A stretch of 64,000 bases of DNA, from contig OX597818.1 of the NCBI GenBank assembly GCA_951406725.2, forward strand, positions 98,518,001 to 98,582,000, given 5' to 3'. The number at the start of each line of letters is the position of its first letter. Within the stretch, counting starts at the first letter, position 1. The notes below the pieces were generated by a model. The model was not told the DNA's origin and did no database searches. It saw nothing but the letters and a program-made list of their open reading frames with translations. Below are positions 40,528 through 48,349 of this stretch, in pieces. The translations under genes and the position numbers were made by a program. The stretch is from Octopus vulgaris. Its lineage: Eukaryota.

Positions 40528-42099
40528 TCCTAGACCTTTATACCTTTATACTTCTCCATAATCCCAAATATTTCTATCATACTCGTAAACATACAAACTA
40601 GAACACGCCACTCTATAAGCACACTGATTTTAACAGGAAGCAGTTACCTACACTCTCACATTATTTAAAGTTATGCAACTGCGCATGAATAAATTATGCA
40701 AATTACAGCAGAAAAGAATAGCTCAACGTAACGCATTTATGTGAAAGAAACAACAAATTACAAACTGTTAAGTTTTCATGACCACTTACAAAAAAATACA
40801 CAACCGTTTTACTCTAAACATAACGCACACATATACACATATAAAAGCATTAATAACTACTTATCTTAAGCACACATATACACATATAAAAGCATCAATA
40901 ACTATTTATCTTAAGCGTATTCGTACGATAAATAGTCATTTATTTGACCTGTTGTTGGCATTAGTGGTGTAAGAAAAATAATATCCAAGACAAATAAGAT
41001 TTGTGAATAACAACCAGAATGCATTGCGTTCTGTTACTTAATAAGTGAAAAATTGTATAGTAAATGCACAAACGAAAAATAGATACTGAACAGCAATTAA
41101 AAATCATTTAGTAAATGCACAGACGAATGGGAAACAGACACAGAAGGTCTCTAATTCCTAATCAGTTATCGATCAGAGGGTATGACGCAATTTCGTGCCG
41201 TTAACGATAAGATTGGTTCCCAGCTGGAGGCATCTGCAAGAAAAACAACCACTACATGGATACAAAAGTGGACATACGAAAATTAATAAATGTAATTCAA
41301 GACGACGGACGAGGGACAAAGGTGAAATAAATAGAAAAACAAACAATATGCAGCCTTAAGGCCAGATGAAGACGGAGCATGGGTAACGCTTAGAGGGAAA
41401 TCCTAACGGATTGGAACCCGAAGGACAACAGTCAACAAAACAGGCTGAAGTGGAGACTAGAGAATTTGCGACCTCAATGACCGGTGTAAAAATGAGAGAA
41501 CGAAAAAAAGGCTGACCACGGGTCACGTGTCAGCTCAGCTGCAGTCAGAGGGAGACACAGAGGGTAAAGGAGAAAGAGAGCGAGAGAGAGAGAGAGAAGG
41601 GAGGGAGAGAGGAAAAACGGAGAGAGAGAGAAAGAGAGGGAGGAAAAAACGGAGCGCGAAAAAGAAGAAAGAAGAAAGGCAAGAAATAAAGGATTGCACG
41701 GATTTATAAATAACTTACTGTGAATTAAAGGAAAGGTGCGTTGCGTTCCGTTAATAAATAAGAAAATGTCTAGCAAATGTAGAAACGAAAAACTGACACA
41801 GAATGGCAAGTTACACACACACACGCACACACACATACACACATATACATACATATATATATATATATATATATGTGTGTGTATACACACGCAAACATAT
41901 ATACATACATATATATATATAAATATATATATAATAGTTATCGCCATACTAATATGGCATTCTTATAAAAATAAGAAAAAAGCTGTCCGCTTATTAGCTC
42001 CATGAGGCCATCGCCTTAAGTTAGCTATTTGATACACAAACTGTATCCATATAACCTTCGAACAAGGGAGGTCAGTCGCTCCACACTACTTGACCGGCA

Positions 42100-42141
42100 G
42101 CTACAGACGCGTTTCGGGGTATTGTCCCTTTTCAATGCAGC
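42100..42141 (-). ncRNA. Minimal type I hammerhead ribozyme, U3-A8 core variant (copy 1)
   Basis: Minus strand: GCUGCA UUGAAAA GGGACAAUACCCC GAAA CGCGUC^UGUAGC. Stem I GCUGCA/UGUAGC, palindromic stem III ACGCGU, GUC cleavage triplet. Confidence 0.75.
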
Positions 42142-42461
42142 GTAGCCAGCCAGTAGGTGTCGCTTCCGACAATCTCTGTTCGATGGTTTTATTTACCTAG
42201 TTTCGGTGGAATACATCCACTTGTTTTCAATAATAGAAATATTAAAATAACTAAGTCTCACTAAAAGAGAACAGCGGCAGCGTTCCCGGAAAATAATAGT
42301 TATCGCCATACTAATATGGCATTCTTATAAAAATAAGAAAAAAGCTGTCCGCTTATTAGCTCCATGAGGCCATCGCCTTAAGTTAGCTATTTGATACACA
42401 AACTGTATCCATATAACCTTCGAACAAGGGAGGTCAGTCGCTACACACTACTTGACCGGCA

Positions 42462-42503
42462 GCTACAGACGCGTTTCGGGGTATTGCCCCTTTTCAATGC
42501 AGC
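42462..42503 (-). ncRNA. Minimal type I hammerhead ribozyme, U3-A8 core variant (copy 2)
   Basis: Minus strand: GCUGCA UUGAAAA GGGG-CAAUA-CCCC GAAA CGCGUC^UGUAGC, with a perfect 4-bp stem II. Confidence 0.8.
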
Positions 42504-46163: not shown

Positions 46164-46187
46164 CGATGAATGAAGAAAGTTTGTTAC

Positions 46188-47669
46188 TTACGGTTGTGAG
46201 AGGGAGCATGGCAGCTTTTGTCTGCCTGCCTCCCCCACACTCTCCGTTGTTGCTGGGCATTTAACCGGCGTTGCCACCGGGCTCTGGGATGGAGTGGCTG
46301 CCGGGCTAATATTCAATTTTCCAGCTATCACCTCTTGTGTGACATCTTTAATCAGGTTGTCCCTCACGTGTAGTTGGAAGAGTCTCTCCTTCCATTCCTC
46401 CTCTCCAACCTTCGCATACCTCCAATCCGGGTTTTTTTCCGATGATTTGAAACATTTTATGTTTGGTTTCGCCTTTATGTACCAAACTACTCTCTCGTTT
46501 TTTGTGTTATAAGCAATGCACCTATCGGTTTTTTTGAATCCTTTTAAAGTTGGGGGCTGGGGTTTAATGAAATGCTGGCCTACAAAAGTAGTGCCAGCGG
46601 GGTGGGATTGGATAATTTTTTTGTGTTGTTCTTCTGCGTTTGTTTTTCTTTTTGTTTGGGGTGGGGAGTCCGGGGTATTGGATTTCTTCCTTTTGTTGGT
46701 TACAGTCGTATATTCCATTACTTCCAGTTCTTTTCCATTTGATAAAATATTTTCCACCTCGTTTTCGTTTTCGCTTTGTTTTCCATTCATTTTCTTTTCC
46801 TCCTTTTGACTTTCATTTTGCTTTTTCCGGGTATTCTCTTTAGTTGTTGCTGTGATGTCTGCTTTGTTCTCCACAGCGGTTTGAATGGGGGCATTAACGG
46901 GTTTTTTCTTTTTGCACTCTGAGCGGACGTGACCCTTCTGCCCACATTTGAAACATCTAGGCCTACGTCCCTCAACCGATACCCGCGCAGTGTGTCCATC
47001 CCCCACGAAGACCCTGTCTGGCAAACTCTCCAGCGTTGCATTGTCAGCTTGAACGATCATTTCAAGCTGCTGACCTTTCCAAAATTTTGCCTCTTTCATC
47101 CTCATGTTTAAAATGTTTAATTTCTCTTCTACGTCGAATACGACCGTTGTTGCTGCCCACATTACATCGTAACCTGTTGGTATATCCTCTATTGTTATCT
47201 TAGCTGTTCTGCGCCCTAAGTACGTGGGCAGCAACAGGATGTCTGCACTCTTCAACGTTTGAGTTGAAATTTCCTTCGCTATGCTAGCCGACTCGAAATG
47301 CGCTTCAATAGTAGCGCTTCTCACTCCTCGGCCAACATAGCGAACCTTGTTCCAAATTGGTGCCATGCACCGTTCTACCAATTCATTTCTTACATCTGCA
47401 ATCTTTTTTTCCTTAATATTATATACCTTATAAATTACCGTCTTCTCACGGATTGCTTGTAAGGTGTCAGGGGGCGGTATTATTCTCGTTTCTTCTCCAT
47501 TCCTTTGTATGAACTTTCTGAACTTGAAGAGATCCTCCATTGTTACTTCCAGTTCTATAACATTGCCTCCAACGGCTTCCGAAAAACTTTGTTTCTCCTT
47601 TGTATCCTTTTGCTTTATAACTTCTCCCATCTCGGGAAAATCAGAATTTGACGTTAAGTCAAGATCCAT
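46188..47669 (-). CDS. ORF1: gag-like nucleic-acid-binding protein with CCHC zinc knuckle
   Basis: CFKCGQKGHVRSEC knuckle followed by a K/E-rich region. Lies upstream of ORF2. First ATG at 47669; the track start at 47720 is a non-ATG codon. Confidence 0.88.
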   Translation of the reverse strand: MDLDLTSNSDFPEMGEVIKQKDTKEKQSFSEAVGGNVIELEVTMEDLFKFRKFIQRNGEETRIIPPPDTLQAIREKTVIYKVYNIKEKKIADVRNELVERCMAPIWNKVRYVGRGVRSATIEAHFESASIAKEISTQTLKSADILLLPTYLGRRTAKITIEDIPTGYDVMWAATTVVFDVEEKLNILNMRMKEAKFWKGQQLEMIVQADNATLESLPDRVFVGDGHTARVSVEGRRPRCFKCGQKGHVRSECKKKKPVNAPIQTAVENKADITATTKENTRKKQNESQKEEKKMNGKQSENENEVENILSNGKELEVMEYTTVTNKRKKSNTPDSPPQTKRKTNAEEQHKKIIQSHPAGTTFVGQHFIKPQPPTLKGFKKTDRCIAYNTKNERVVWYIKAKPNIKCFKSSEKNPDWRYAKVGEEEWKERLFQLHVRDNLIKDVTQEVIAGKLNISPAATPSQSPVATPVKCPATTESVGEAGRQKLPCSLSQP

Positions 47670-48349
47670 AATAAAATGCAAGTGACTTGTCACAAGAGAC
47701 AAGATAAAAATTAAATCCACACTGAATTAAAGTTCATATATAAAAAGAAATTTTCTACCCCGAAGGGCGAAAATTACTTTGTTTCACAAGTTAATACTCC
47801 AAAAATTGTACGTGTAAATCCAGAACAGAACGAACTAACATAACAGCTTACAGCGTAAAATAATCCGACGTAATCCAAGGAAAAATCAGTAGGTGTCGCT
47901 TCCGACAATCTCTGTTCGATGGTTTTATTTACCTAGGTTCGGTGGAATACATCCACTTGTTTTCAATAATAGAAATATTAAAATAACTAAGTCTCACTAA
48001 AAGAGAACAGCGGCAGCGTTCCCGGAAAATAATAGTTATCGCCATACTAATATGGCATTCTTATAAAAATAATAAAAAAGCTGTCCGCTTATTAGCTCCA
48101 TGAGGCCATCGCCTTAAGTTAGCTATTTTTTATTATTTTTATAAGAATGCCATATTAGTATGGCGATAACTATTATTTTCCGGGAACGCTGCCGCTGTTC
48201 TCTTTTAGTGAGACTTAGTTATTTTAATATTTCTAATATATATATATATATATATATATATATATATATATATATATATATATATATATATATATATATA
48301 TATATATATATATATATATATATATATATAAATATATATATATATATAT

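Follow-up and report, generated by a model that had tools for sequence, protein, structure and literature searches.

A 64,000-nucleotide stretch of the Octopus vulgaris genome (assembly GCA_951406725.2, contig OX597818.1, positions 98,518,001 to 98,582,000 of the forward strand; hereafter the window) carries a full-length long interspersed nuclear element (LINE) of the L1/Tx1 type, inserted into a tandem repeat with a predicted hammerhead ribozyme. The family to which this element belongs is a young retrotransposon and is, almost beyond doubt, site-specific: its insertion point in a ribozyme-bearing retroelement (retrozyme) is one particular nucleotide, which precedes the predicted core of a type I hammerhead of the U3-A8 variant by 32 bases. 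The element and its target are laid out as follows.

42530..47886, minus strand: full-length L1/Tx1-type non-LTR (long terminal repeat) retrotransposon, 5357 bp.
46188..47669, minus strand: first open reading frame (ORF1), 493 aa, CCHC zinc knuckle (zf-CCHC, sole Pfam match), no internal stops.
42765..46163, minus strand: ORF2, 1132 aa, APE endonuclease, reverse transcriptase (RT) and zf-RVT, no internal stops.
42513..42529, minus strand: 3' copy of the 17-bp target-site duplication (TSD), GGAAGCGACACCTACTG in element sense.
47887..47903, minus strand: 5' copy of the TSD, 17 bp.
42462..42503, minus strand: type I hammerhead motif of retrozyme unit 2; its U3-A8 core begins at 42497, helix III is a palindrome (ACGCGT) and the cut is predicted after 42468.
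42151-42174, minus strand: empty target in retrozyme unit 1.

On the forward strand the TSD reads CAGTAGGTGTCGCTTCC at both 42513-42529 and 47887-47903, and the 3' junction, AATAAAGATTTA, runs straight into it without poly(A), AATAAA lying immediately within the 3' end of the element. The TSD, together with the fixed 3' end and the 5' truncations found in the family, is the signature of target-primed reverse transcription (TPRT). Two ORFs, with APE, RT and a C-terminal zinc motif in an ORF2 nearer to L1 than to R2, place the element in the L1 group (L1/Tx1); human L1 ORF2p is the top relative of ORF2 among solved structures (E 1e-65) and scores 225 bits vs 84 bits for R2. A Gag-like CCHC ORF1, in place of the coiled-coil ORF1 of vertebrate L1, marks the Tx1 clade, and zf-CCHC is all that Pfam detects in ORF1 here. 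Protein-search, cluster look-up and Atlas matches contained no named Tx1 reference; the best of them (350-650 bits) were unnamed animal proteins, and the protein matches included one from Argonauta at 64% identity. The label Tx1 is supported by architecture and behaviour. A preliminary interpretation made from the window's letters (the sequence-only reading) had described an intact two-ORF element with a perfect 17-bp TSD in unit 2 of a 362-bp tandem repeat and an empty site preserved in unit 1, and each of these features was confirmed.

We counted copies of the family by scoring the best 40 of 348 candidates and by searching for an exact 24-mer from the element's 3' end, a census that gives a lower bound. 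The 24-mer matched the genome 28 times (control 0). As many as 21 of these 3' ends fall at one nucleotide of the host repeat, 18 running into host sequence and 3 into another copy of the element, and the remaining 7 lie elsewhere; the on-site ends are spread over 16 loci on 10 chromosomes. Since the 2.8-Gb genome holds 1153 exact empty target sites, occupancy is about 1.5% and an insertion would fall on such a site by chance with a probability of about 2e-7, so that chance placement was rejected. Kojima regards a family as target-specific when >20% of its flanks share one common target (PMC4494074); here the share is 75%, and in the youngest clade all 20 of 20 rows lie in the same repeat. The sequence-only reading had proposed, from a single insertion, that the family may target a dispersed ribozyme-bearing retroelement. 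Tabulation of the flanks bears this out, the other copies proving to be independent insertions that mostly share the same nucleotide rather than lying in unrelated sequence.

The preference extends beyond the window family. An APE search scored 150 loci, and 60 loci outside the family were taken for analysis; 28 of these sit in other retrozymes, where a hammerhead core follows the 3' end at a distance of 23-32 nt, most with a TSD of 14-20 bp. We designate the window host H1. Among the hosts of the related loci, H3-H6 are 68-83% alike, H2 has no blastn match to the others, and H7 is 71% identical to H1 over 93 nt; the junction pattern of H3/H4 occurs at 28 places in the genome. The other 32 loci comprise one at the 5' end of a U2 small nuclear RNA (snRNA) gene, several at other recurring sites or in (TC)n, and 7 for which no 3' end was found. 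In a 66-row tree with a midpoint root, retrozyme targeting occurs on both main branches and on one outer branch, and this broad spread suggests that it is likely ancestral in the clade; the fine branching is not relied on, because rows L220, L240, L253 and L261 are chimeric or deleted. A derived branch of the clade (L255, L257-L259; L262, L269; L248, L249) uses other recurring targets, TCTACTGAGTACCGCT, CCCACTCGCTTCAAAA and AGAGTTAGTTCCCCTTG, in unassigned repeats. We also noted runs of APE matches about 5.3 kb apart on C5, C9 and C27, where tandem stacks are likely, and a more distant young family (L272-L276, 62% APE identity), of which L274 and L275 end in (TC)n in a Kibi-like manner.

Host-derived sequence at the 5' ends of the elements records changes of target. 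Older copies form a ladder within which the 20 H1 copies make up a single young clade (100/99); the older ones end either at a true U1 gene, as identified by Rfam, or at sites mostly starting with ATAC. One full-length copy (L143), 97.4% identical in ORF2, carries U1 nt 1-17 at its 5' end though it is inserted at a non-U1 site. Three further insertions lie at the U2 5' end in a U2 array (C3:20.81-20.84 Mb; L223, L329, L330), two of them in tandem, and all three carry a relic H5 retrozyme target, ATCGCTACGTGGTG, at the 5' end, directly inside the U2 TSD. Host-derived 5' heads have thus been carried to new sites, and targets have switched to and from the 5' ends of U1 and U2. Given the U1 head of L143, the nesting in the U1 ladder and the relic H5 targets, we consider it likely that the window family passed from a retrozyme to U1 and then to a different retrozyme, and that another family passed from a retrozyme to U2; by its path through U1 the window lineage would have regained a site directly upstream of a hammerhead. 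Among 42 matches to the U1 start, 30 were examined, and 3 of these loci adjoin the window lineage. Two inverted U2 genes (L143:901-1094 and 7485-7678) enclose the U1-headed full-length copy, and a U1 snRNA cluster (G000:C18:48.97-49.29 Mb; L150-L155, L168-L188) has at its edge about 60 kb of nested, broken clade copies with U1 nt 1-17 as TSD.

How the site is found is best explained, in our view and with a probability of roughly 0.6, by targeting on the host's own transcript, with flanking host RNA helping to fix the site. The hammerhead motif stays intact on the 3' side of the element after insertion, and the lack of poly(A) together with the host-derived 5' heads suggests that templates start and end in host sequence. 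The element would be co-transcribed with the host retrozyme array, and the host hammerheads, whose predicted cuts fall after 42468 and in the unit upstream, would trim the transcript to an RNA of 5736 nt in which the element is preceded by 317 nt of host leader and followed by 62 nt of host tail; the host period is 362 bp, and unit 2 including the insertion measures 5736 bp. Under TPRT a 17-bp TSD implies two nicks 17 nt apart; the APE would accordingly make one in the bottom strand, where the TSD begins, and the other, 17 nt beyond, in the top strand. The host tail could then pair with the nicked primer and the host leader with the second strand, so that a short endonuclease preference combined with flank pairing would yield specificity; new targets would be founded when, on rare occasions, an element landed in another multicopy RNA gene that is transcribed. 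The host ribozyme would thereby play the role of R2's own. R1Bm requires downstream target RNA, which pairs with the nicked primer (PMC7265360), R2 is released from its co-transcript by a ribozyme (PMC3414825), and retrozymes have been reported to be highly transcribed (PMC7229834).

Several points weigh against this reading. The co-transcription step is read from DNA sequence. With only 6/17 bases alike in register between the U1 and H1 targets, pairing of the flanks is not enough to account for the founding switch. ORF2 contains six polarised changes outside the APE, of which five alter charge (E428R, C431R, G666R, K774E and E/K877N), and these could be protein determinants; moreover, the Tx1L endonuclease is sequence-specific in vitro (PMC1950540). 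Translation is unexplained, since a ribozyme-cut RNA would be uncapped, and the copy census, being a lower bound, limits the reading further.

It is quite possible, though not what we expect, that protein alone selects the site, which would be read by the APE and other ORF2 surfaces of an element with its own promoter, the hammerhead position merely marking a conserved, harmless stretch of an abundant repeat. Tx1L-EN does nick its own target specifically (PMC1950540), and seven polarised ORF2 changes accompany the switch from U1 to the retrozyme, L84M being the sole one within the APE. The H2-H6, U1 and U2 sites also have a short ATC/ATA start in common, and off-target copies start with ATAC. 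However, U1-type and retrozyme-type copies share 95% identity in the APE, whose hairpin loop (aligning to L1 T192-S202; role described in PMC1950540) does not differ among H1 and U1 copies and most of those from H2 and H3. The switch branch further shows no excess of amino-acid change (14 non-synonymous/15 synonymous vs 87/82 in the background), and the host-derived 5' heads indicate that some templates, at least, began in host sequence. Because the natural switches among retrozyme, U1 and U2 come with a near-unchanged endonuclease, they also suggest a bolder form of flank-assisted targeting, in which the hammerhead-cut host tail acts as the guide for site choice and specificity is inherited through RNA and not protein. 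We put this forward tentatively and think it rather unlikely; if it were true, such RNA-guided specificity could be re-aimed by changing the flanks.

Whichever molecule reads the site, the window-family copies arose by independent insertion. Hitchhiking, in which duplication or Penelope machinery multiplies a composite of retrozyme and one or a few chance insertions, might seem attractive, as the host family is young and mobile, with units 99% identical, and 16 of the 21 on-site copies are full length with identical junctions. The other five copies, however, are 5'-truncated at different positions in the element (129, 3111, 3309, 4666 and 5289), with differing upstream junctions and TSD lengths, and on C2 five copies are stacked head-to-tail with TSD spacers between them. 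Empty units stand beside filled ones in 12/16 arrays (24 empty, 18 filled). The last base of the element and the first base of the target occur in all four combinations. The four haplotype groups of the host arrays disagree with the element tree (from which a 69-bp copy was omitted), and insertions are equally positioned in retrozymes that cannot be aligned with one another. Cumulatively, truncations, stacks, mixed arrays and discordant trees largely refute amplification as a composite, which we regard as very improbable.

The remaining rows of the interrupted array, which TRF failed to call, describe the host.

41931..42292, minus strand: retrozyme unit 1, empty, bordering (TA)n and without the 63-bp tail.
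42100..42141, minus strand: hammerhead motif of unit 1, with one helix II mismatch and a predicted cut after 42106.
42293..42529, minus strand: section of retrozyme unit 2 downstream of the insertion, with the intact hammerhead.
47887..48128, minus strand: upstream section of unit 2, together with 100 bp from unit 3, which is 5'-truncated.
48126..48239, plus strand: inverted 5'-truncated copy with the 63-bp tail at its end, then (TA)n; a Penelope-type inversion.

The 362-bp unit is dispersed in the genome in copies 99% identical (best 40 of 1225 candidates scored), with the 3' tail fixed at unit position 300, variable 5' ends, and common inverted, truncated copies; (TA)n flanks surround the copies in the window and in the loci read. 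This layout matches the anatomy of Penelope insertions as given in PMC8557442. Partial tandems, an inverted 5'-truncated copy, a one-sided tail and microsatellite sites are features of a Penelope-like derivative, and a tandem array of short non-coding units, each with its type I hammerhead (by our own descriptor; Rfam negative), is that of an animal non-LTR retrozyme. We therefore describe the host as a non-autonomous retrozyme with Penelope-like insertion anatomy. The sequence-only reading had gone further and suggested units of a Penelope pseudo-LTR (pLTR) or retrozyme; the retrozyme and the Penelope-like anatomy stand, but no autonomous Penelope carrying the repeat as its pLTR was found among 30 GIY-YIG loci and 12 longer stretches of 6136 candidates, where the only retrozyme matches, lying near the ORFs, are best read as separate insertions. 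Two candidate partners were rejected on this ground: in L309 an 80%-identical unit lies antisense to a Penelope-type ORF, and in L317 an H3/H6-like fragment lies in (TA)n beyond the element's own end. L317 itself is a Penelope-type element with RT and GIY-YIG, a 766-bp inverted repeat and, by eye, a hammerhead-like motif with a CCGAAGA core in its 3' region at 5295-5345. A further abundant family (L310-L316, L318, L319) has an intact 781-aa RT and GIY-YIG ORF, preceded in two loci by a 479-aa ORF without Pfam match, and our strict motif caller detects no hammerhead in it; a second ORF is unusual in Penelope-like elements.

Read on the minus strand, the complete type I motif parses as GCTGCA / TTGAAAA / GGGG CAATA CCCC / GAAA / CGCG TC^ / TGTAGC, and in the predicted fold (z -2.55) helix I reaches up into the TSD. 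The strict caller was positive in 25/29 retrozyme-type flanks, in 0/8700 shuffles and in 1/1162 window tiles, the last being this very motif. Across 20 aligned motifs 96% of cells are paired and 9/14 pairs show compensatory changes, although this count tilts toward structure because the aligned rows were picked by the same caller; the 3-8 core pair covaries between C3-G8 and U3-A8, C-A never being seen, and the U3-A8 variant has been described for Penelope hammerheads (PMC4209133). Neither the window nor 7 related loci gave an Rfam match to a hammerhead, the cores of some relatives are non-canonical (C4; U3 with G8) and an autonomous partner was not found in the loci searched, but with every helix present, the shuffles negative, the pairs compensated and the tail, 5' ends, inversions and (TA)n sites agreeing with Penelope anatomy, it is hardly credible that the host is a satellite whose hammerhead-like motif arose by chance, without a working ribozyme element. 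By eye, each unit also has a second, degenerate hammerhead-like motif (window 42185-42240, minus strand: TTGAAAA ... hairpin ... GAAAC TAG GTA). Elsewhere in the window, a 184-190-bp SINE-like (short interspersed nuclear element) repeat forms tandem arrays at 17481-18235, 39831-40381 and 55499-55868, and short ORFs at 49436-49822 resemble a C-terminal fragment of another LINE.

Targets described for Tx1 families include piggyBac, Mariner, Harbinger and LTR elements, U2, U5, 5S and microsatellites; Tx1L of Xenopus laevis targets the piggyBac-type Tx1D, and the crocodilian Tx1-Mar, Tx1-9_AMi, Tx1-8_Crp and Tx1-4_AMi target Mariner, Harbinger and LTR elements (PMC4494074). Like these, the octopus family is a two-ORF, APE-type element with a long TSD at a fixed site inside another mobile element, and its TSD-separated tandem stacks resemble those described for the Tx1-mobilised SINEU-3 (PMC4494074). 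Unlike Tx1L and the crocodilian elements, it has a non-coding hammerhead retrozyme as target, its position is linked to the ribozyme across several unrelated hosts, and a single genome shows very recent switching among retrozyme, U1 and U2. As with the U2-specific Keno (PMC4494074), octopus sister subfamilies insert in U2 and U1 genes; compared by description, the octopus copies have their insertion point at the very first nucleotides of U1/U2 and branched off recently from a retrozyme clade. With R2 (PMC3414825) and R1Bm (PMC7265360) the octopus family would share co-transcription with a multicopy host RNA, processing by a ribozyme and priming aided by target RNA, but R2 has its own 5' ribozyme and a restriction-like endonuclease, whereas the octopus ribozyme would be the host's and lie 3' of the element. 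The host, for its part, resembles animal non-LTR retrozymes and non-autonomous Penelope-like elements in its non-coding 362-bp tandem unit, type I hammerhead and short palindromic helix III (PMC7229834; bioRxiv 10.64898/2026.07.22.740005; PMC4209133), as well as in its partial tandems and inverted 5' copy; unlike known animal retrozymes, its U3-A8 core escapes Rfam, and it is known solely as DNA sequence. The literature covered, lying outside Repbase, subscription papers and the supplementary target lists of PMC4494074, describes no LINE whose targets are retrozymes or Penelope hammerheads, and the accessible parts of PMC8869645 and bioRxiv 10.64898/2026.07.22.740005 describe no LINE targeting of retrozymes. 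Since Tx1 families that hit mobile elements were already described (PMC4494074), the novelty initially proposed for the target narrows to the class of ribozyme-bearing retroelements, to which the history of switching is added.

Ribozyme retroelements thus join the target classes of sequence-specific LINEs, in what would be a parasite chain of three levels that leads from Penelope to the retrozyme and from the retrozyme to the LINE. Target switching is here caught in progress, in subfamilies that are 97% identical in ORF2 yet use different 17-bp targets, with relic TSDs recording the former target. The intact copies on either side of the switch make it directly testable whether the endonuclease or RNA pairing changes the target of a LINE and, if RNA flanks matter, the finding would bear on tools for site-specific gene insertion.

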